Below, piece by piece: positions 2,645 to 61,669 of a stretch of 64,000 nucleotides of DNA. Below the pieces are notes generated by a model, which worked only from the letters and a program-made list of their open reading frames with translations, searched no databases and was not told the origin of the DNA. The stretch spans positions 10,051-74,050 of the IMG/VR virus record IMGVR_UViG_3300038412_000083; one strand, given 5' to 3'. This DNA is from a virus. Lineage: Duplodnaviria > Caudoviricetes. The translations under genes were made by a program, and so were the position numbers. How positions within the stretch are numbered: the stretch's first letter is position 1; each line of letters begins with the position of its first letter.

Positions 2645-3792
2645 TGAAAAATAATATTGTTATGGATGATACGAACATTAGAAAAGGGAGGTGAACTAAC
2701 ATTTACCGTTACTTCTCCGTAAACCGTTTGTCCATCATCCTGTGTAAGTGTATTTCTAAAAACATAAATTCCTGTCGTTAATCCTGTTACTGTGGTACTT
2801 GCAGAAGTTGATGAAGTTATTGTTGCAGCAGGCCCGCTTGTTTTCGTCCACGCATAAGTACCTGAATGACCGGCGGCCCATATAGCTGTTGAATAAATAC
2901 TTGTTGAACTTGTACTGATAGCCTGATTGCCCGACATTGAAACAGTAGGGGCATCCGCTATATCTGAAACGTCTTGATAAACTTTATAGCTTTGGGTTAC
3001 CAAAGAAAATCTTCTACCCCTTGTTGTACTATCTACATTAACCATTGCACTATTCCAATCATACAACCCTCCGAACTTCACATAATCGTCAAAGTGCCCT
3101 ACTTGTCCTGTATCACGCCTATATTTTGTAACCCCATCAACTTGCAAATGAAAGAATGCTGTTTGGCCTGTATAGCCTTTACCTTCTCTGAGTGTTACCC
3201 TTACTGTATGTGGTATATTATACCAACCAGATAAAGTTCCAATTGTGGTATTAGCCGTAACAAGTGTTCCACCCCCTACATCATGTACATCACCGCTTAT
3301 TAAATTGCTGCTTGTATCAAGATCAATTCCCCACACTGTTGCAACCTGAGTAAGACTATGAATCTGCATAGCCACTAAAATTTGATACCAACTTGTTAGA
3401 TAATTATAATTTTGTGGAAAATAACCTTTCCATTCAAGCGTGTAAGTATGGGAAGTATCAATAGTGAAACTATATTGCGAAAGTGTCATTTCTGAACGTG
3501 GGTAGCCAGACCCAACAGGTGTACCATCTTTAATTGTACTCCATAATGCACCACTTTTGATCTGCTCACCAAAACCTGCATTTCTTCCTACATACCAATT
3601 AACGCTTGCAGCATCGTAAAATTCACCATAAGGAGTAGTATTTTCGGCATAAAATAAAGTAGTATCTGCACCATTTATTGATGTTAGCGCATTAGCATCT
3701 GCCATATTGAAATTATACAACAAAGTGCTGCTCGTAGGCATCTGAGCCTTTACAATAAGTGGGAAAAGAAATAATATGATTAGTTTTTTCAT
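2641..3792 (-). CDS. Secreted polysaccharide-lyase-like protein with a C-terminal PKD-like domain
   Basis: Signal peptide (...LIVKA-Q); RSEM / MQIH / YVKFGGLY motifs as in jelly-roll polysaccharide lyases; YAWTKTSGPAATITSS...GLTTGIYVFR PKD-type repeat. Confidence 0.55.
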   Translation of the reverse strand: MKKLIILFLFPLIVKAQMPTSSTLLYNFNMADANALTSINGADTTLFYAENTTPYGEFYDAASVNWYVGRNAGFGEQIKSGALWSTIKDGTPVGSGYPRSEMTLSQYSFTIDTSHTYTLEWKGYFPQNYNYLTSWYQILVAMQIHSLTQVATVWGIDLDTSSNLISGDVHDVGGGTLVTANTTIGTLSGWYNIPHTVRVTLREGKGYTGQTAFFHLQVDGVTKYRRDTGQVGHFDDYVKFGGLYDWNSAMVNVDSTTRGRRFSLVTQSYKVYQDVSDIADAPTVSMSGNQAISTSSTSIYSTAIWAAGHSGTYAWTKTSGPAATITSSTSASTTVTGLTTGIYVFRNTLTQDDGQTVYGEVTVNVSSPPFSNVRIIHNNIIFQ

Positions 3793-6700
3793 TAATTATG
3801 GTTTTTCGTTCCTATTAAAGTGACAGATAAATAAGTTGGCTTTGTTGTGATTGAAGTCAGTTGACACCACACCCAATTACCAGGCGGTATCTTCGCATTA
3901 TCAAAACTTGTTACCGTTGTTCCTGTGTAAATATCTGTTGCTGCACTTCCAGCATTTACCAATTTAGTTGCCCCTGCTGTCACTCCCAAAGAATCATTAA
4001 AGTAAATTGTAACTGTCACAGAAGGAGAAGTTCCCTGCAATCCAATCTTCATTTTAGTAATATTCAAAGTGTCGGTACCTGAATTGTACATAGAACCATA
4101 GATAGCACTTGTGCTCGCTGCAATCGTATCTGCGGCCAGTCCTGAACCGTAACCGAAGGAAAGGAGTGGGATTGTGTCTCTACGCTCTACAATATTTCCT
4201 GTTGAAGTTACTGAGAGATCATAAGCTGGTGTGCTTTGGAAGTTACCTTGTCCGTATTGATTTAATTGTATTTTGCCGTCATTATTGAACACTACTTTAT
4301 CGTGAACTACACCGTTAATATCTGAAGTGTCTTTTGTGCCAAAATGGATAGACGCTCCACTTGAACCTGCTGATATTTTGTCGGCAATAAAAGAGATATT
4401 TGCCTCTTCTGATGAAGAACCGGAACTTGTTGGTAATCCAGCTTTTATAGAATATCCCTGACCTGCTACTGTAGAAGTTGAAAAACCATTTAAGGAAACC
4501 ATCGGAGAAATAGTGCCGGATATATCTGTCCTTTCAGCATAGAAAGGTGCTCCAGTAGATGTACTTGAATAAACCCCCAAACCTGTTGTATTTACGGCTT
4601 TTATTGCCTGTGTTGCAGTCGAATAATTTGAATAAATACCATTATCTGTGAAACTTATCTTATTTGTTCCAGCACCCATTATGTACAACTCTTTACTGTT
4701 TAATGTCAATGAGTCTGTTTTTGTCAGATTTCCACCTAACTCAACATCATTTCCAGTTTTTGTTAAACCATTTGAAGCGGATAAAATACTTAACGCATGA
4801 ACACTATCCACATATTTTTTATCAGGAACAGTAAGGCTGTCTGCTGTAGTCATTGTGGGATTGGTGGTGTATTTAGCCTTACCAATTACTGAAATGCCAG
4901 AACTGTCAACCTGTAATTCCTTTATTCCTTTAGATATTAATTGTATAGGTTTAGCACTATATAGCACACTCGCGTAAGCAGATGAACCTGAGTAAAATCC
5001 TCCCGCAGTACTACCTTCTTGTCCAAGATAAAATGAACCACCTGCATTATTAAACTTATTGTATGTATAGCTGGTTCCTGAATATGTTTGATTAAGAAAG
5101 ATATTTGAAGATGAGGTTATTGTCCCTGATAAATTAAGTGTTGTTCCCGTAAGTGTTGTTCCCGTAAGTGTTGTTCCCGTAATTGTTGTTCCCGTAATTG
5201 CAGATGTTGAAATTAATGGATTATAAAAATAAATTCCCGCATCATTAATTTTAGCCCTCATTACTGAATCCGTATAAAAAGTCATATTTCCCCCCCACGT
5301 AGTATTCCTACCAACATTAAATTGTAATTCTGCTACATTAGGTTGCATTTTTATAAAAGATTCCGGTGTTGTATAGTTGTAAAATATAATCCCATATTTA
5401 TTGCTGTTAGAAGTGGTTGAGAAACTTAATACAGGTGCAGAAGATGTTAGTTCTAACATACTTTTGGGTGTTCCTGTACCTCCCAGCTTCATAGAATCAG
5501 TAGATGAATTACCCTTATCCATCACGCTTTGTAAGCTCGGTATTGATGATTTTGAATCATATAAATTCCCCTTATTATTATGCCCAGCAAAAGCCTGAGC
5601 AATTATATTCCCCAGAACTATACTTCCATAATAATTTGGGTGCAACCCATCTGATGTAAGAGTGGGGATTGTTTGTAAATTAAAGTTTGCAAGAGCGTGT
5701 AAGTCAATACACTGTACACCATAATTAGCGCATATTTGAGAAATCAACACTTCCAAATCTGTGAGTGTCCACCCGGCTGAATTAGTTGCATGATAAAGCA
5801 CCCCTGCGCCGTTAGCTTCAGGCGGAGTCATTACATATAATTCAATATTCGGATTAGCGGATAAAATGGATTCTATCATGTGTTTTAAATACCCTGCGCA
5901 AGTCGTTCTATTTGATGAGTCATTTACAGTACCCAAAGAATCGCTCGCTGCAAAATCATTTACGCCTAATAAAATACTTGCTATATTGAAGGAATTAAAA
6001 TAGGTTGGATTGGCTGATAAAATTGAATCTAATTTTGCAGATTGTTGATAAAACCTATTACCAGAAACGCCGTTTGTTACTGTTCCTGTAAGATGAAGCA
6101 ACGTATCAACCCTTCCGTAATAATGATTGGATGTAGCAGAAAAACTATCCCCAAATATTACCCATTTCTTCCAATATGGATTCCTGTTTTGATTAAGTGT
6201 ATCTGTAATATTTGCCTTCAATCCATTTTGATAAAGCGTTGTCCAACCTGTTGTTGAGTTGGTGGAATCTACTTTACGTAAATACGGACTAAGCATTGAT
6301 GCTGTGTCTGAGATGTTTAGTTTTGTTATATCGTTTAAGTGACCTTTTTTTACAGTGTCTTTATCCATCCATACTACACTATTTATGTCAGCATTTGCAC
6401 TATCTACCTTTTTTAATGTGAAATCGCCATTGGTTTCAAATGCTCCCATTTCACTGTAAGGGTGTAATCCATATTGTGATCCATAAGGATAAGCTACTGA
6501 ACCTTTACTAAATACTATTCTGCCTGAATTACTTGAAAATTCCATACCCCCTGAACCATTGGTACTAATTATTGCACCATCTGTTTTAAGATCATTAGTA
6601 GTACTTCCCATCATTAATTTTAACCAATGCCCTGTCCATTCATCTGATGGATTATCGGCTACATTATTCTTAAATACAAAGCCTGTTGCTGCCCAATTTA

Positions 6701-11037: not shown

Positions 11038-12144
11038 TTAATTCGATTCTTTGAACTTTCCGAACTTAGCAAGAGCCTGTGCCGGTGTCAATGACGTATC
11101 AGTAATTGACGGGGCCGAATCTTTCTTTGTAGGGTTTTGAAGTTCATCGAATGCCTTTTTTTTGCCTATCGTTTCTCCATGAGATATGAGCATCTGCTCA
11201 ATTTTGTCCATGTTGGCTATATAGGCTTTAGCCTTGTAAACTTTTGCGAGGTCAGCATTCCCTTTCTTATCAACCAAGTCATTAAATAAAAGGTTAGGGT
11301 TAAGGGCAGTTTCTACCAAGTCTTTAGGCTTTTCAACGTTGAAGTTGAAGGCTGTTTCTCCGCTACCGTAAACAAGTTTCTTGTCTTTAAGTAGGGTTTT
11401 GGTTTGGTCGCTCTCATCCACGAAACTCTTGTACTCATTGTACTTAGCCTCTTGTTCTGCCTGTTGACGCTGTGCACTGTCATCAACAGGCTTCTCCGGT
11501 GCTTTAAACTTGCTTTGTGTTTCTATTAACCCTTTTCTGATTTTATTAGCTTCGTGTTTCAATAACTCCCTGCCCAGTTCTGCGGCGGCCTCTCCGTTTA
11601 CTTCCGCATCAAGTTTATACTGTTCATTTACTTTTTGTTCGTAAAGCATGTCGAACACCTTGTCCGGCATATCCTTGTACTGTTGGCGCAGGTCATGTTT
11701 CATAATCTGCTCGTCAGTGAACTTTGAGTAATCAACCGTCTTAGCTTCCAAGTAAGGTGTTAAATCCCCTGTCTGCTCTTTATATTTTAAAAGGTCAATA
11801 TCAAAATCGTCAAAACCCAGTTTTTTAAGGGCTTCATACTTATCAATCTTTTTAAGTTCCTCGTCAAAGTTTAAAACTGGTACTACTACCTTTTCTTCTT
11901 TAACTTCTTCCGGCTTTTCTTCCGGTATTTCCACTTTTTCATCTACCTTTTCCTCGGCAGGTTTTTCTTCTACTTTTTCCTCCGGCACTTTTGCCACCTT
12001 TTCTTCGGCTGGTTTTTCATCTGCCTCTACTTCCGGTTCGTCAGGGTCAACCAATGAAATATCACCGCTTTTTGCTCCCTCAAAAGGATTATAGGCTATA
12101 CCGCCTTTACCTTCTAAGGCATCATAGAATTTTTTTATGAACAT
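11038..12144 (-). CDS. Capsid scaffolding protein
   Basis: Very E/K/P-rich, coiled-coil, between portal and MCP. Confidence 0.7.
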   Translation of the reverse strand: MFIKKFYDALEGKGGIAYNPFEGAKSGDISLVDPDEPEVEADEKPAEEKVAKVPEEKVEEKPAEEKVDEKVEIPEEKPEEVKEEKVVVPVLNFDEELKKIDKYEALKKLGFDDFDIDLLKYKEQTGDLTPYLEAKTVDYSKFTDEQIMKHDLRQQYKDMPDKVFDMLYEQKVNEQYKLDAEVNGEAAAELGRELLKHEANKIRKGLIETQSKFKAPEKPVDDSAQRQQAEQEAKYNEYKSFVDESDQTKTLLKDKKLVYGSGETAFNFNVEKPKDLVETALNPNLLFNDLVDKKGNADLAKVYKAKAYIANMDKIEQMLISHGETIGKKKAFDELQNPTKKDSAPSITDTSLTPAQALAKFGKFKESN

Positions 12145-36587: not shown

Positions 36588-37126
36588 TGGTACACATAAT
36601 CAACATACCATACAGAAGTGAAAGAAAAAGAATAGTGGAGCAGGAAATGATTCAGCAGGGAATAACTGACTACCGTTTTTGGGATGGCATTGTTGATAAT
36701 CCTGTATGTAAAGGCGTATCAAAAGCACACAAGCAGATAGTGGCCTATGCCAAACAATATGAACTTCCTGAGATAACGATTGCAGAGGATGATATTAAAT
36801 TTCCTGCAGAAGATGGTTATGAATACTTTCTCAGTAAGAAACCGGAAGATTTTGACCTTTATTTAGGGGGAATATACAGGGGAGAAATTAAAGACGGTAA
36901 AACAACCGACTTTTCTTCGCTTCACCTGTACATTATTAAAGCAAAGTTCTACGATACTTTCTTAGGCATTGATGAAACAAAACATTTGGACACCGAACTT
37001 GCCGGTAAAGGAGATTACCACGTTTGTTACCCCTTCGCAGCTATTCAACACAATGGGTACAGCGATGTAGAGCGAGGTAAAACCAATTTCGACAACTTAT
37101 TAAAAGGCAAACTAATACACCAATGA
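36587..37126 (+). CDS. Glycosyltransferase, GT25-like (start moved from 36518)
   Basis: IINIPYRSER...FWDGI...GVSKAH...IAEDD. Confidence 0.75.
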   Translation: MVHIINIPYRSERKRIVEQEMIQQGITDYRFWDGIVDNPVCKGVSKAHKQIVAYAKQYELPEITIAEDDIKFPAEDGYEYFLSKKPEDFDLYLGGIYRGEIKDGKTTDFSSLHLYIIKAKFYDTFLGIDETKHLDTELAGKGDYHVCYPFAAIQHNGYSDVERGKTNFDNLLKGKLIHQ

Positions 37127-48851: not shown

Positions 48852-49907
48852 ATGTATTACACAACAACCACCAACAGTCAAACCTTTCAACCGGCCAATA
48901 AACAGAGAACGCTATTTTTGCCCCTTTTTAGCCTCATGGCTGATAAAATGCGTGAAGGCAAGTTATTAACGCCGGACGGTAACAAATACAGCCATAACAC
49001 AGTCAAGAATTATCAAACAGATATAAAAGCCTTTAAAGCATATCAGGAAGAAACAGAAATTATTTACCTGGAGGAGATTTCTATTAAGTGGGCAGAAGAT
49101 TTTAATATTTGGATGATGGATAAAGAATATAGTAAAAATACTATTGCCGGAACACTCCAACGCATTAAAGCCGTTTTGCGCCGTTTAAAGCATGAAGGAG
49201 TTACAACATTCGACGGATCCGGAATAAGAGCGGCAACAGAACAAACAACAACCGTATTTAATACTATTGAAGAATTGAAGACACTACTGGAAGCTGATTT
49301 TTCAGATACACCGGGATATGACAGAGTAAGAGATATTTACGTGATTCATTGTTTTCTTGGCCTTCGCTTTTCTGATCTTGCTATTTTGCTTGCAAATCCT
49401 AAAAACTATTTAAGAGAGATGGGCGGCAAACTGTACTTTGAAATCAAGACGCAAAAGACGGGTGAGATTGTTTTCATCCCCGTTTCGAGGTCTGTTAAAC
49501 AGGTGTGCGACAGATACCAATGGAATTTCGGGGATTTATTCACCTACCAGTATTACAACGAAGCAATCAAAGAAATAGCAAAGAGGGCCGGATTAACTGA
49601 AAATATAGTATTCAGCAGGACGGAAGGCGGGAAAAGAGTAGATAAGCAAGTTCAGAAGTTTGAATTAATGAGTAGCCACACCGCCAGGCGAACATTTGCG
49701 ACCAATGCGCACTTATCAGGGATAGCAGAAAGAGATATTATGTTAATCACCGGCCACAAGACAACGGCCAGCTTTTATAAGTATATCAGGAGCAGCAGCA
49801 TGGAAAACGCTATTAAGATTGCCAACCACAACTTTTTCAACTTAGATATGCCGGTAACTATTAGCTTGCCGCAGGAAGTAAAACAAGAACTTAAACTATT
49901 ATTTTAA
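48852..49907 (+). CDS. Tyrosine recombinase (Bacteroidota type; core-binding plus catalytic domains)
   Basis: GLRFSD (R), TQKTG (K), SHTARR (HxxR), TGH, FYKY (Y). Confidence 0.9.
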   Translation: MYYTTTTNSQTFQPANKQRTLFLPLFSLMADKMREGKLLTPDGNKYSHNTVKNYQTDIKAFKAYQEETEIIYLEEISIKWAEDFNIWMMDKEYSKNTIAGTLQRIKAVLRRLKHEGVTTFDGSGIRAATEQTTTVFNTIEELKTLLEADFSDTPGYDRVRDIYVIHCFLGLRFSDLAILLANPKNYLREMGGKLYFEIKTQKTGEIVFIPVSRSVKQVCDRYQWNFGDLFTYQYYNEAIKEIAKRAGLTENIVFSRTEGGKRVDKQVQKFELMSSHTARRTFATNAHLSGIAERDIMLITGHKTTASFYKYIRSSSMENAIKIANHNFFNLDMPVTISLPQEVKQELKLLF

Positions 49908-51947: not shown

Positions 51948-52003
51948 AAAAAAACATTAAGTGGAAAAAGAAGGGGTGCAATAATAATACTAATTATTTA
52001 TAT

Positions 52004-52483
52004 TTAATCATTTTTAATTAAATTTTCCAAATTCCTAATTACATTTTGATAATTTAATGCAGTAAAAGTTAGCAACGGCCATCCTAAACTTTGAGCAAGG
52101 TTTGATTTATCACTATCCCGTGTTGCTCCAGCAGCAGAACTATGACCGCTTTTAGTTTTCATAAAAATTCCTCCCTGGTATTCAATGGCAGCTACAATAT
52201 TTTCATTTGTATATTCAAACTCTCGCGCTTGTTTTTCAGTTACGCCTTTCATTACCACAAAATCAAACCTGTATTTTCTTTTTTTATCGAACTTTAATTC
52301 AGGTATTACAATAAACCCTATCTTCTCGCACCAATATTTTAGCTGCCAGTGAATCCATTGAACTTCTTTACAATCGTTCCGGGCTTTTACTACTTTCTTT
52401 ATCGTTTTTCCGGTATCAGGAACGAGGTGTTGATTTCTTGCGCCGCAGGGTGATTTTAATATTGCTTCTATGGTGGGTTTCAA
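52004..52483 (-). CDS. PD-(D/E)XK endonuclease-like phage protein
   Basis: ELKFDKKRKYRFDF...AIEYQGG...RDSDKSN...GW. Confidence 0.7.
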   Translation of the reverse strand: MKPTIEAILKSPCGARNQHLVPDTGKTIKKVVKARNDCKEVQWIHWQLKYWCEKIGFIVIPELKFDKKRKYRFDFVVMKGVTEKQAREFEYTNENIVAAIEYQGGIFMKTKSGHSSAAGATRDSDKSNLAQSLGWPLLTFTALNYQNVIRNLENLIKND

Positions 52484-52674
52484 AGTTTATTTTTTAACTG
52501 ATGGTAACTTACATTGCCGCCTTCAATGTTCCATGACATTGTAGATCCTTTTACCTTAGCCTCAATTAATCTAAATTCTTTTCCAGGCATTAAATACTTT
52601 GGCTTTATAAAGCGATATTCCTGTTTTTCTATTCGGAATAGAAGTTTCTTTTTATCAATTAGTTGTATTGTCAT
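52480..52674 (-). CDS. Hypothetical protein
   Basis: 64-aa ORF. Confidence 0.5.
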   Translation of the reverse strand: MTIQLIDKKKLLFRIEKQEYRFIKPKYLMPGKEFRLIEAKVKGSTMSWNIEGGNVSYHQLKNKL

Positions 52675-52692
52675 GTTGCGTAAATAAACGAG

Positions 52693-53124
52693 TTATACGG
52701 CAATGCTCCCTGTCGAAATTAATTCAGGGTTGTCGTGGATGTTCCCGGCTACTTCCATTTTATAAAGATTTATCTCTTCATTATGCCATTGAGAAGCGGC
52801 GCAAGAAATAATTTCTTTACCTCTATAAGTGTTTGGCATTGAAAGATAAAAACCTCCGATTGCGCCAATCCATTTTATAACATAAATTACTTCACTTTCA
52901 CTTTTTAAAATATCATTCTCGAATATTTTTTTACCATTTTTATCTAATAGATTTATGCACTGTCCTATTGTTTCAGGAATAACCTCATCCATGTGCATAT
53001 CCTTATCAGTATTTTTAGATGTGAGAATCCAATGCTTACCATTGCGCTCATCGATATACAAAAATCCATAAGTCCAAGTGTTATCAAATTTATCTTTGCC
53101 TCTAAATAAAATTTCCCTTTTCAT
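52693..53124 (-). CDS. yopX: YopX family protein (cassette 4; start moved from 53274)
   Basis: MKREILFRGK...IGQ...DKNGKKIFENDIL...EVAGNIHDNPEL. Confidence 0.9.
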   Translation of the reverse strand: MKREILFRGKDKFDNTWTYGFLYIDERNGKHWILTSKNTDKDMHMDEVIPETIGQCINLLDKNGKKIFENDILKSESEVIYVIKWIGAIGGFYLSMPNTYRGKEIISCAASQWHNEEINLYKMEVAGNIHDNPELISTGSIAV

Positions 53125-53175
53125 GATTTTTATGTTTTTATAGTTTGAAATAATTTTCTCGTTTACCGCATCGCC

Positions 53176-53308
53176 GTATAACAGCCCGTTTTGCGCAAGC
53201 AGGGCAGACCTGCAAGCGCTCAACATTTTTTCTCTAATCAACTTTAGTGCCTGTGCTGGGCAGACCGTTTTCAAATATCCTGCCTTCGCAAAGCGGAAAA
53301 CGTAAGGC
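53176..53308 (-). repeat. attC-like hairpin C (133 bp)
   Basis: GCCTTAC ... CCGCTTTGCGAAGGCAGG // CCTGCTTGCGCAAAACGG ... GTTATAC. Confidence 0.75.
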
Positions 53309-53312
53309 GCAA

Positions 53313-53675
53313 TTAAACCAATTCGTAATCGCTTCGTTTGTACCTGATAAAACGAACTCTGGTTTCCATTTCAATCGAACTTAAGATTCTGTTGGCAGCA
53401 CGAAAACATACTTCTGCTACTATTTTATCTGGCAAATCGGCAATAGTAATCATTACACTATTGTGGATTAGTTTAATGAAATTTCTTAACCGAGGAGATA
53501 TTTTAATACCCATGTCTTTTAAGCTATCGAGACACACATAAACATCTGTAAAATGTATCAACAAACTGCGCCTTACATTGTGTTTGGCAATAGGCTTTGC
53601 AGACCTGCGAGTTTTGAACACCTGTTCGCTATCAACTTTAGTTCCAGCGAACGAACTTTTATCAACTTTTTTCAT
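53313..53675 (-). CDS. Hypothetical protein (cassette 3); the long ORF starts inside hairpin B and the true start may be downstream
   Basis: Stop codon 4 nt before the R'' box of hairpin C. Confidence 0.45.
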   Translation of the reverse strand: MKKVDKSSFAGTKVDSEQVFKTRRSAKPIAKHNVRRSLLIHFTDVYVCLDSLKDMGIKISPRLRNFIKLIHNSVMITIADLPDKIVAEVCFRAANRILSSIEMETRVRFIRYKRSDYELV

Positions 53676-53761
53676 TTTATGATCTTTTGGTTTTTAATTA
53701 ATCTTTTGTTCCGGCTTGACGTGCGCTATTTCAGCCAATCGCCAAGCCCTGACCGTAAGGC
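53570..53761 (-). repeat. attC-like hairpin B (192 bp)
   Basis: GCCTTAC ... GCTTGGCGATTGGCT // AGCCTATTGCCAAAC ... GTAAGGC. Confidence 0.75.
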
Positions 53762-53767
53762 GCAAGG

Positions 53768-54010
53768 CTACTTTTCTCTATTCTTTACGTGTTCACAATA
53801 ATGAAAATTATAATCAGAGGGATTGTTATAAATTCTTACATCTAACCCTTGCATAGCGTACTCTGTAAGCTCTTTTATCATTCTTTCATTTTCTTCAACA
53901 TCAGTACCATCTATGAAGTCGGTGTGTAATGCTGTTACAGCAAAAACGCTATTGCAGATAGGACATGAATACCCTAAAATTGGGCGATTTCTTTTTTCAA
54001 TTTTTTCCAT
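53768..54010 (-). CDS. Small Cys-containing hypothetical protein (cassette 2)
   Basis: CPIC...HYCEH; stop 6 nt before the R'' box of hairpin B. Confidence 0.6.
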   Translation of the reverse strand: MEKIEKRNRPILGYSCPICNSVFAVTALHTDFIDGTDVEENERMIKELTEYAMQGLDVRIYNNPSDYNFHYCEHVKNREK

Positions 54011-54036
54011 TTTGTTTTGTTTTTTACCCGCCCTGC

Positions 54037-54170
54037 GCCTTACATTTCATTGGCGAAAAGCAGGGGTGAAGAATATATTTTGAACTTTTGTAGCACTATT
54101 GAACTTTTGTAAGTGGTTGGGCAGACGTGCTACTATTTCCCTGCCTTCGCCAATGAGTTAACCGTTATGT
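54037..54170 (-). repeat. attC-like hairpin A (134 bp)
   Basis: ACATAAC ... TCATTGGCGAAGGCAGGG // CCCTGCTTTTCGCCAATGA ... GTAAGGC. Confidence 0.8.
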
Positions 54171-54596
54171 TCAAGTTTTTAATTTTTCTTCCCTCTGCAC
54201 AAATTCGTGTTCAGTAATTGCAATCGGTATTTTAGTTGAACCATGTCCACAACAATGGCAACCACCTTCATTTAATTTCATGTTTTGCAATTCCTTTTCA
54301 GCATCTTCTTTGGTTAAAAAGAATACATTGAAAAATGAAATATCTTTTGACCACAAAAATGTATCTCTCCACGTTTCAGGCTTATTGCTTTGCCACACCT
54401 TCATTTGTTTATAGCAGAACTCATTTGTATCAGTTCTTTCAATTAGCCAAAGCATCCCACCATTTTGGTAGATGTTAAAGCATTTTTCTATGTATTCTTT
54501 TTCTTCTACCTCTGTTTTCTTTGGTTCATTCGATAACATGCCGCTTTGCTCAAGGCTGGCTGAAGGAAGCAAGTGATCTTTTTGTTCGTTGTTCAT
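54171..54596 (-). CDS. Hypothetical protein (cassette 1)
   Basis: Starts inside hairpin D; TGA abuts the R'' box of hairpin A; CHCCGHG motif. Confidence 0.55.
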   Translation of the reverse strand: MNNEQKDHLLPSASLEQSGMLSNEPKKTEVEEKEYIEKCFNIYQNGGMLWLIERTDTNEFCYKQMKVWQSNKPETWRDTFLWSKDISFFNVFFLTKEDAEKELQNMKLNEGGCHCCGHGSTKIPIAITEHEFVQREEKLKT

Positions 54597-54665
54597 CTTT
54601 TGTAAGTATTTTGAAGTGAAGTAATTCTATTCCCAGCCCTGCGCAAAGCGGGCAGGACGTTAGTG
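54531..54665 (-). repeat. attC-like hairpin D (135 bp)
   Basis: CACTAAC ... CCGCTTTGCGCAGGGCTGG // CCAGCCTTGAGCAAAGCGG ... GTTATCG. Confidence 0.8.
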
Positions 54666-54979
54666 GCTATACTACCACATTTTTCAAATCTTCCTGTATC
54701 GGCATAGCAGTCTGAATTATTTGCAAAAAGTTGCTCAGCACTTACATCACTTACTTCATCCAAAACTATTTTAGGCGTAAACTTTTCCACTTTTGTTATA
54801 GTTGCTTCTTTGGTTAAAGTTTTTGATTGAAGGGGAATGATAATTTCTTCATTGCTTTGAAGGGCGGCTTTGTAACCAGCGGTAAATCCGTTTAAACTTC
54901 TCTGGTTTACTTCACGTTGTGGATGTTTATTTTTATACCACTCTTTGGCTAATTTTTCAATTTCTTGATCTGTATTCAT
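54593..54979 (-). CDS. Hypothetical protein reading through hairpin D
   Basis: 128-aa ORF; its C-terminus is the translation of the repeat arm. Confidence 0.5.
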   Translation of the reverse strand: MNTDQEIEKLAKEWYKNKHPQREVNQRSLNGFTAGYKAALQSNEEIIIPLQSKTLTKEATITKVEKFTPKIVLDEVSDVSAEQLFANNSDCYADTGRFEKCGSIATNVLPALRRAGNRITSLQNTYKR

Positions 54980-54985
54980 GATTGT

Positions 54986-55444
54986 TTATTTTTGATAGTT
55001 AAAAATATTGTCATTAAGGATTTGAAGCTCATTTCCGAAAATATCATCTTCAAGTTTTTTATTTATCCCTGGATTCTCGTAACTTTTATAAAGCCACCTT
55101 TTTAAAACATTTTGGCTATTTCTTAAATTAATCCTTGTTAGGTTAGTCGGGTTCTCTATGTGCTCATCAATCCTTTTATTCATCTTTACTACGATCTCAA
55201 TTAATGAATGGAAGTCTTTGTAGGATTCCATTGGTGTTTGTTTTTTGAAATTATAATACGTTTCTTTGTTTCGATCAATTACACTTTGATAACAATGGGC
55301 AGCTAATTCTTTACCTCGTTCAGTAAATGGGAATCGTTTTTTAAAATTTATCCTTCCCTGGACTCTGCAAGCCCAATAATAATTTTTACCGTTATCAACC
55401 TGAAGTGTCACCCCTTTAACTCCTGATGATTTATTTTTTCTCAT
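54986..55444 (-). CDS. AP2-like DNA-binding domain protein
   Basis: NKSSGVKGV...YYWAC...KKRF...KELAA. Confidence 0.5.
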   Translation of the reverse strand: MRKNKSSGVKGVTLQVDNGKNYYWACRVQGRINFKKRFPFTERGKELAAHCYQSVIDRNKETYYNFKKQTPMESYKDFHSLIEIVVKMNKRIDEHIENPTNLTRINLRNSQNVLKRWLYKSYENPGINKKLEDDIFGNELQILNDNIFNYQK

Positions 55445-55709
55445 TAAAAAATTTTAAAACGTGTAAAATCTTTGCTGCATTCGTTAAACTTTTATTTGTA
55501 AACTTTAATCCTGTTTCCCTGCATTCGTCAACTAATTTCTTTTTTTCTTCTTCCGCTAAATTTTCAATAATTGTTATCTGTTTTTCATTTACCAGTATTT
55601 TATAAACTTTTAAGATAACCTCCTTTGGCACATCGCTTGTAATTAGGTATTCAAGATGACCTTTCTTGTACTGGCTTACAAATGTTGAACAAAGCTCTAT
55701 TTCAATCAT
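55431..55709 (-). CDS. Hypothetical protein
   Basis: 92-aa ORF in the replication operon. Confidence 0.55.
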   Translation of the reverse strand: MIEIELCSTFVSQYKKGHLEYLITSDVPKEVILKVYKILVNEKQITIIENLAEEEKKKLVDECRETGLKFTNKSLTNAAKILHVLKFFNEKK

Positions 55710-56377
55710 TCTTTTACGTAAATATGTTCTGAATTATTACCTAATTTCCTTACAAAAAACTCATGCACATTTTCACCTTCACTCAGCAATCCATCTTCTC
55801 GTAATGTTTCTTCAAAGTAAATGTGAATGATAGGGCGATAACCTTTTTTAAGTGCCTGGAAAGCGGTTTCTATGTCATACCTGTACTGGTTCAAAACTTC
55901 CAAAGGATCATAAGGCTTTTTTTCCGGTGGCGGCTGCATTCGTTCCAATAATCTACCAATTTCCCGTCTTTTAAGCTCATAGGGCCAAAGAACACCATCA
56001 ATAAGGCTTAGGTTCATTTCTTTCCCCCAATCTTTTACACTTGTTCCTGAATGCCTGAAAGCATATTCAATTTCATCAACGTTAAACGTAGGGTAATCTT
56101 CAATAAGTTTTTTTTGAAATTGATCGTTAAGAACGTTTAAAATGTCTCCAGAAGGTAAATTCCATCCGGTTATTACCTGAATACGAATTAAAAGCGCGGC
56201 ACAATGTTTTCTTAGATCACTTTTACTTAACGATATTATTTTTGGAGAGCAAAGGGAAAGTTTATTAATTTTCTCCTGTTCATCCGTCAATACCGAATTC
56301 TTCTCTAAGTTGCTTGGCAAGTTCATAGGCTCCTGAACTTTTACCGTGATTTGCTGAAGATGTTTTACTATTTCCAT
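55706..56377 (-). CDS. Replication-associated protein (possible helicase loader)
   Basis: Directly follows the initiator gene; function inferred from position. Confidence 0.4.
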   Translation of the reverse strand: MEIVKHLQQITVKVQEPMNLPSNLEKNSVLTDEQEKINKLSLCSPKIISLSKSDLRKHCAALLIRIQVITGWNLPSGDILNVLNDQFQKKLIEDYPTFNVDEIEYAFRHSGTSVKDWGKEMNLSLIDGVLWPYELKRREIGRLLERMQPPPEKKPYDPLEVLNQYRYDIETAFQALKKGYRPIIHIYFEETLREDGLLSEGENVHEFFVRKLGNNSEHIYVKE

Positions 56378-61549: not shown

Positions 61550-61669
61550 TTGCGTATGCAGGACTCGAACCTGCGACCTACTGAACCGAACCTTAATAGT
61601 TTTTTAAGGTTTCCTCTACCACAGGACTTTACCGAATACAATCGCTCTAACCAACTGAGCTAATACGCA
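61550..61669 (-). tRNA. tRNA-like gene with a 46-nt insertion in the anticodon loop (anticodon TCG if the insert is removed); no encoded CCA
   Basis: Acceptor TGCGTAT/ATACGCA; D arm GCTC-AGTTGGTTA-GAGC; T arm GCAGG-TTCGAGT-CCTGC; variable loop AGGTC. Confidence 0.75.

Follow-up and report, generated by a model that had tools for sequence, protein, structure and literature searches.

An array of four gene cassettes in a phage genome as a probable member of an integron-like system of Bacteroidota and their phages

Gene capture and shuffling is the textbook role of integrons, and the locus described here raises the question of whether phage genes, including a gene as widespread as yopX, can be carried as the cassettes of a comparable system. 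The DNA in question is a 64,000-nucleotide stretch (hereafter the window) that corresponds to bases 10051-74050 of the 74,050-bp IMG/VR virus record IMGVR_UViG_3300038412_000083, which has direct terminal repeats. Between about 51 and 64 kb of the window the genes lie on the minus strand, which is also the coding strand of an array of four single-gene cassettes (52692-54662) with four related imperfect palindromes that we call D, A, B and C (Table 1). An earlier, sequence-only reading of this DNA had proposed such palindromes and had likened the arrangement to an integron, and the palindromes are indeed found where it placed them on the minus strand. We believe that the locus is best explained as a recombinase-less, four-cassette array that belongs to a large integron-like system shared by Bacteroidota and their phages, and we assign this explanation, with its proposed mechanism included, a probability of roughly 0.8.

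The case for membership in a family comes from outside this phage. A custom covariance model, of the kind that the sequence-only reading had suggested, was trained on 44 elements from IMG/VR contigs other than this one, with the window itself contributing none. Its minus-strand matches to D (54670-54526, 62.4 bits, E 3e-10), A (54175-54032, 58.7 bits) and C (53313-53171, 44.1 bits) are full-length. On B the match is confined to the loop, and over the 64-kb window the model finds nothing beyond these four matches. The 18-mer CTAACGTTTTGCGTRTAT, taken from two elements of a phage record (G001) that is described below, occurs in 66 IMG/VR contigs, versus roughly four expected by our estimate, and also in 64 genome contigs, nearly all of which are from Bacteroidota. 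Arrays of the family hold up to 13 elements, and element lengths fall into classes near 48, 88 and 125 nt. Their geometry is fixed: the spacers on the two sides measure 5 nt and 1-2 nt, and the stems, of 17-20 bp, align without gaps. These stems covary strongly and are very different in sequence between neighbours, and TAACG and TGTTA are invariant. Searches of Rfam with the window, with the array region at a permissive threshold and with five arrays returned no family for the hairpins.

Several side observations concern the same family. In elements of the class near 125 nt, the loops share a repeated ACAAAAnTT (window 54060-54120, in the loop of A; alignment columns about 65-100), and thus the 'variable centre' of these elements is partly conserved. 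Two phage contigs with long arrays, L121 (7736-9301) and L140 (110-3850), also carry dense clusters of tRNA genes, and L121 has a full tmRNA gene too (86 bits). Three contigs from metagenome-assembled genomes labelled Saccharofermentanales, Nitrosotalea and Saccharibacteria (L168, L193 and L220) hold 3-12 elements each in the polarity seen in phages, and mis-binning of Bacteroidota phage contigs into unrelated genomes is the probable reason.

A further line of evidence lies at the ends of the cassettes, where the box that opens a cassette complements the box that closes the same cassette rather than its own partner across the hairpin. The sequence-only reading had noticed this feature, and it survives closer inspection. 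In the window, the end boxes of cassettes 2 and 3 are complementary at 10 of 10 positions each, those flanking yopX (53182-53168 with 52706-52692) at 14 of 15, the odd position being a G.T pair, and those of cassette 1 only over the five positions of GTTAT/ATAAC. The exact 10-mer GTAAGGCGCA occurs four times, solely at 53302, 53567, 53755 and 54034. For the family as a whole, 119 cassettes were scored for complementarity between the 11 nt that follow a GTTA and the 11 nt that lead up to the next TAAC. The R' box of one element and the R'' box of the next are complementary at a mean of 7.9 of 11 positions, and at 9 or more positions in 55% of the 119 pairs, whereas the controls give 3.7 of 11 for the two boxes of a single hairpin and 3.8 of 11 for random pairs. 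Moreover, an orphan complementary TAAC box follows 32 of 59 array-terminal elements, compared to 0 of 59 in the wrong-side control. The yopX unit of the window has the same terminal arrangement as those 32 arrays, and its end signature agrees with the proposal that yopX itself is a cassette.

The cores of these boxes follow the same logic. TAAC/GTTA is found in 179 of 184 family elements and the variant TTAC/GTAA in the remaining five, so that the compensated GTA/TAC core described in the sequence-only reading is real, if rare. The variant appears four times in the window, where it is compensated within each cassette that carries it but mismatched within hairpins A and C. The window stems have irregular bulges, none of which is conserved, and they share CCGCTTTGCGAAGGCAGGG, while the stems of G001 share GGGTATTGGCG or GCGTRTATRAG.

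As a side observation on the array ends, terminal junctions often consist of TAAC followed by TATTATATATA (L255 about 2860, L260 about 2749, L091 about 9711), and the terminal junction of G001 at 36842 consists of TAAC followed by TACTGTATATAAGC. The motif TATTATATATA may mark a docking site.

Do such units move? The only relative found for cassette 1 resides in G001, a complete phage record of 71 kb, and is 79% identical at the amino acid level and 86% at the nucleotide level. When the two whole genomes are compared, the sole DNA they have in common is this cassette 1 stretch (86% over 360 bp), and their few shared structural proteins are just 22-27% identical. The array of G001 comprises nine or ten elements, each with the order xxxTAAC, G plus 4 nt, a stem of 17-20 bp, loop, arm, 1-2 nt and GTTAxxx. 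Its genes are flanked by inverted repeats that match at 14/16, 14/15, 17/19, 19/21 and 14/15 positions, its cargo includes a C5 and an N6/N4 DNA methyltransferase, and it is likewise closed by an orphan TAAC box. The end boxes of its cassette 1 copy differ from those of the window copy, yet they are complementary within each copy.

More generally, otherwise unrelated contigs among the loci retrieved for this analysis share 13 independent segments, which are 277-466 bp long and 86-99% identical. All 10 segments that are informative on their 3' side end there at the TAAC core, and 8 of the 13 also have a TAAC core as their 5' boundary. Similarity ends within a few bases of the core, as in the pair L115/L144, where 99.4% identity is followed by nothing. 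Because shared cassette-sized segments break sharply at the TAAC box, sequence comparison indicates that the cassette units are DNA recombination units with site-specific breakpoints. Integron-type cassette logic, as had been proposed for this locus, is therefore upheld at the DNA level by end-box complementarity and by cassette-sized segments moving between unrelated phages.

The position of the crossover is where our results depart from that proposal. Breakpoints in relatives do fall at the R boxes, as the sequence-only reading had anticipated, but they lie at TAAC rather than at G|TT or G|TA, and this conflicts with a crossover 'just after the G'. Given that cuts at TAA|C and at G|TT predict the same end-box signature, the original observation was right despite the wrong crossover. 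A crossover in TAA|C, the probable cut within the core, would define the mobile unit as a hairpin, the GTTA extension, the ORF (open reading frame), the complementary extension and TAA, and in phages the hairpin would thus move with the ORF downstream of it.

Orientation was judged from spacer geometry alone, and wobble pairs were then counted with a scoring that is neutral to G.T and A.C. On the strand that reads TAAC-G, G.T pairs outnumber A.C pairs by 409:85 in viral elements and by 97:41 in chromosomal elements. This strand is the coding strand in viral contigs (about 125 vs 5) and is mostly antisense to the flanking genes in chromosomes. The classical cassette orientation is present in the chromosomal arrays and inverted in the phage arrays, where the hairpin stands ahead of its ORF and where an ATG lies in the loop of D, B and several G001 elements. 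That the structure belongs to one strand regardless of transcription suggests that the elements act as DNA rather than RNA, and that they might fold as single-stranded DNA in the manner of attC bottom strands (PMC2727003). Within the window, D (z -3.9) and A (z -3.7) fold far better than shuffled sequence. A scan of the array region for promoters of the sigma-70 type yielded five such sites, against 8.3 expected. No terminator-like site was found inside the elements by a scan of the same region, which speaks against hairpins that are merely terminators, an outcome that the sequence-only reading had entertained. A side observation on polarity is that phage arrays (viral loci L091-L156) read towards the recombinase gene, and chromosomal arrays (genome loci L157-L220) away from it.

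Which enzyme might act on these elements is best judged from arrays elsewhere. One family of Xer-like tyrosine recombinases lies about 0.6-2.6 kb from family elements in 5 of 5 copies, distributed over four Bacteroidota genomes; these proteins of 274-370 aa are 43-48% identical to each other. Chromosomal loci of the system include Aequorivita nionensis CP130281 near 2.218 Mb and Cecembia lonarensis AMGM01000138. In Aequorivita nionensis (L219), the plus-strand recombinase gene (3031-3855) and the minus-strand cassette ORFs stand opposite each other in the classical divergent layout. The models that best match a recombinase of the L219 type are NF040815 (219 bits, cut-off 220) and the IntI model TIGR02249 (205 bits, cut-off 265). 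Across the array-adjacent recombinases, TIGR02249 scores are 168-205 bits, below the cut-off of 265, and only model positions 2-181 and 239-315 are matched. The skipped positions 182-238 are the region of the IntI-specific additional domain, which is cited as a defining feature of IntI (PMC9668308). The cognate enzyme is therefore likely to be a small Xer-like recombinase without this domain rather than a host IntI, one of the two enzymes that the sequence-only reading had put forward.

Viral relatives of this recombinase show the same association. The L219 protein as a single query had no match in viral contigs, but an alignment of the five sequences did find relatives, and 6 of the 30 best have 3-6 co-oriented elements directly upstream. 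For one of these six loci, the 170-kb contig also holds an array of 12 elements. Five of the six have an orphan TAAC box 66-253 nt before the recombinase gene, often followed by TATTATATATA; at L255 and L260, the gene begins 142 and 253 nt beyond the terminal junction. The chromosomal cassette region of Cecembia rubra (L167 5669-7450), which lies beside an Xer-like recombinase gene, offers a separate observation. It holds a MotA/ExbB-like gene, whose product has a long coiled-coil tail, together with an OmpA-like gene, and the pair is reminiscent of the Zorya-type defence pair.

The phage itself presents a different picture. The absence of IntI noted for the window extends to the entire 74,050-bp record, in which TIGR02249 has no match. 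The phage does encode a tyrosine recombinase (ORF 48852), which had been suggested as a mobilizing enzyme, but we reject it as the cognate one: it bears only remote likeness to the array-associated family (E 0.001) and gave no match in a second search. Furthermore, G001 and Polaribacter phage P12002L both have arrays even though neither has a tyrosine recombinase detectable with TIGR02249 or PF00589.

Taken together, we propose the following mechanism. On the coding strand, a unit would read C, G, 4 nt, hairpin, GT(T/A)A plus extension, ORF, and then the complementary extension plus T(A/T)A. The TAAC-G strand would fold as single-stranded DNA into the hairpin, and a tyrosine recombinase would exchange strands inside the TAAC core. 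The unit would leave as a circle with its two end boxes paired, and this circle could then enter another array or a docking site. Since the phage does not encode the enzyme, movement in this phage would need one supplied in trans, either by the host or by a co-infecting phage.

Several observations weigh against this explanation, or at least against its full application to the window. Two of the shared segments break elsewhere than at TAAC, with L100/L134 ending at T|GTTA and L096/L150 ending 20 nt past GTTA. The window cassette 1 and its G001 copy share neither flanking hairpin, and the 5' breakpoint of the window cassette is 27-75 nt inside the unit, away from any box. A search for close relatives of cassettes 2 and 3 in IMG/VR found none, and thus the mobility of these two is putative. 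The motif TATTATATATA, present beside phage recombinase genes, is not found at the terminal junction of the window (52692). This phage has no relative of the array-associated recombinase, and the array is an orphan for that reason. Finally, C (z -0.8) and B (z -1.6) show no convincing fold on their own. Because these two elements fold poorly and three of the four hairpins bear the rare TTAC or GTAA core, the window array may be in part a fossil.

Even with these reservations, other explanations seem much less likely. The elements could act as RNA, serving as processing or stabilizing hairpins in an early transcript and keeping complementary boxes for long-range RNA pairing. The RNase III sites of T7 are the model for RNA-processing hairpins in a polycistronic early transcript, and several features of the phage arrays would suit such a role: the wobble-tolerant strand is the transcribed one, start codons are within loops, and the two cassette 1 homologues have end boxes that differ and yet are internally complementary. 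However, chromosomes show the strand bias as well, and there the strand in question runs antisense to the neighbouring genes. The invariance of TAACG and TGTTA suggests that a protein recognizes these cores, and Rfam offers no matching family. An RNA function would also leave the sharp DNA breakpoints at the core and the linked recombinase unexplained. We therefore consider it improbable as the primary explanation, although the elements may have a secondary RNA role in phages.

A related proposal is that the hairpins are promoter and terminator modules akin to the PeSLs of T4-type phages, with genes being shuffled by homologous recombination between the repeats. Such modules do drive modular shuffling and form mini-circles (PMC2839356), and the window elements resemble them in lying between small early genes, in being co-oriented with transcription in phages and in having AT-rich leaders in their loops, with an in-frame ATG in D, B and several G001 elements. 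This proposal falters on the lack of a terminator-like site and of any excess of sigma-70-like promoters in the region. Neighbouring stems that covary but differ widely in sequence offer little homology, and the breakpoints coincide with a core of 4 nt, past which nothing is shared. Nor does exchange between direct repeats predict inverted repeats around each gene, and in chromosomes the same elements are antisense to genes and adjoin a dedicated recombinase. We rate this proposal as quite improbable. Poorer still is the notion that the hairpins are small non-autonomous transposable elements, either like miniature inverted-repeat transposable elements or of the IS200/IS605 type with a TTAC-like cut, that have invaded the gaps between genes. 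Such elements would produce a family of palindromic repeats, with a fixed tetranucleotide next to the hairpin, in many genomes, but hairpins spreading by themselves would not render the sequences on the two outer sides of a gene complementary, and the shared mobile segments contain the ORF. The linked gene encodes a tyrosine recombinase, with no HUH or transposase gene linked. A TTAC-directed mechanism like that of IS200/IS605 was dropped on these last two grounds and because its spacing is unfit, and we regard transposable elements of any of these kinds as highly improbable.

Table 1. Coordinates of the cassette array and of the phage recombinase gene in the window
Feature	Position	Strand	Core	Details
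Element D	54534-54662	-	TAAC...GTTA	First element of the array; TAAC 54662-54659; 5-nt spacer side; ~19-bp stem; 73-nt loop with ATG at 54596; GTTA 54537-54534
Cassette 1 body	54164-54533	-		ORF stop TGA 54173-54171; likely start ATG 54540 or about 54527, rather than 54596; closing box ACATAAC 54170-54164
Element A	54040-54167	-	TAAC...GTAA	TAAC 54167-54164; 11+6-bp stem; loop with repeated motif ACAAAAGTTCAA; variant core GTAA 54043-54040, then GGCGCA
Cassette 2 body	53755-54039	-		80-aa ORF 53768-54010; closing box TGCGCCTTAC 53764-53755
Element B	53573-53758	-	TTAC...GTAA	~190 nt, divergent copy; TTAC 53758-53755; long-range stem weak, about 12/15; ATG 53675 within loop; GTAA 53576-53573
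Cassette 3 body	53302-53572	-		ORF end 53313, 120 aa if the start is 53675; closing box TGCGCCTTAC 53311-53302
Element C	53179-53305	-	TTAC...GTTA	TTAC 53305-53302; stem interrupted; GTTA 53182-53179, then TACGGCGATGC
Cassette 4 (yopX unit)	52692-53178	-		yopX 52693-53124, with a TAA stop codon that forms part of the TAAC core; closing box GCATTGCCGTATAAC 52706-52692, an orphan (TAAC 52695-52692) with no hairpin beyond, marking the terminal junction of the array
ORF 48852	48852-49907	+		Phage tyrosine recombinase, not of the array-associated Xer-like family

The genes of the array are mostly unassigned. The product of yopX is identified by PF09643 (E 2.7e-17), and its relatives are at most 46% identical, with no close phage for a comparison of synteny; the ORFs of cassettes 1, 2 and 3 had no match in a family search of their proteins. 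A blastn search of window positions 52000-56000 against 50,697 phage records also gave no match. Stop codons had been described as falling just before or inside the next box, and this is correct for cassettes 1-4, in which they lie 0-3 nt ahead of that box or inside it. An exception is the ORF at 54593-54979, upstream of D, whose called frame runs through the 5' arm of D into its loop.

Two further features of the window deserve a brief mention. Just past the terminal junction of the array, a 159-aa ORF (52004-52483, minus strand) has a match to phrog_503 and a weak one to a homing-endonuclease phrog. Only six ORFs have relatives in G001, and this is one of them (34% identity, G001 11504-11896); the relative is far from the array there. 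At 61550-61669 on the minus strand, the Rfam tRNA model gives 51.2 bits over 120 nt, implying a large insert, and ARAGORN finds no tRNA in the window.

Given that attC clusters in phages have already been published, it seems appropriate to ask what is new. Integrase-less attC clusters were described in virulent phages, including P12002L with its methyltransferase cargo, and IntI1 recombined one P12002L site (Qi et al. 2023, PMC9892861). The elements of that phage are of the TAAC...GTTA type, as in the window family. Integrons have otherwise been reported as rare in phages (PMC9892861) and, according to IntegronFinder 2.0, as almost absent from Bacteroidetes (PMC9024848). Full-text searches of the literature found no description of an Xer-type, Bacteroidota-wide cassette system. 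We are inclined, with somewhat better than even confidence, to view the window array as an instance of an undescribed Bacteroidota-wide analogue of the integron that uses an Xer-like enzyme, from which phages would keep inverted, expression-ready cassettes, with the leading hairpin often supplying the start codon, and through which they would trade small genes, including anti-restriction methyltransferases, via a common pool.

A structurally distinct version of the integron thus seems to occur commonly on Bacteroidota chromosomes and also in many phages of the phylum, in which even the widespread gene yopX behaves as a cassette. If true, part of phage mosaicism would have a site-specific mechanism, and unrelated phages would have a route for the exchange of counter-defence genes. 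It would also mean that current integron finders miss a whole lineage, and that a new structure-specific recombination system is available for study.

How this system compares with known ones can be stated in some detail. The array resembles the PeSLs of T4-type phages (PMC2839356, PMC4122927) in its intergenic stem-loop repeats, its setting in plastic regions, its small ORFans and its modular exchange. However, a PeSL is a direct repeat that joins a promoter to a terminator and recombines by homology, whereas the window has inverted-repeat gene ends and site-specific breakpoints, and no sigma-70-type promoter joined to a terminator stem-loop was found there.

The likeness to classical integrons, and to clusters of attC sites lacking integron-integrases (CALINs), is closer. 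In both cases most units hold one ORF and are set apart by imperfect palindromes whose cores are AAC/GTT and whose centre varies, and the attC pattern of an R'' ending in AAC and an R' starting with GTT is seen here. The G after AAC lies on the wobble-tolerant strand, as it does on the classical bottom strand. Each cassette has complementary ends, the crossover is confined to one core, the terminal junction is without a hairpin, and relatives carry DNA methyltransferases as cargo. The differences are nonetheless substantial. The family has an asymmetric 5 x 1-2 nt loop instead of a roughly symmetric unpaired spacer, and it has no conserved extrahelical bases (Bouvier 2009, PMC2727003). End complementarity extends to 10-21 nt, and the linked recombinase is without the IntI additional domain. 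In phage arrays the ORF is on the folding strand with the hairpin first, whereas in the classical arrangement the ORF is upstream of attC and the bottom strand is antisense to it.

A last comparison is with sedentary chromosomal integrons, whose Vibrio cholerae repeats are homogeneous, long attC sites of about 120-130 nt. The length class of ~125 nt and the tendency of sites to resemble each other most within one genome are common to both. Even so, the window array differs in host phylum, recombinase family and site geometry, and it sits within the early operon of a phage.

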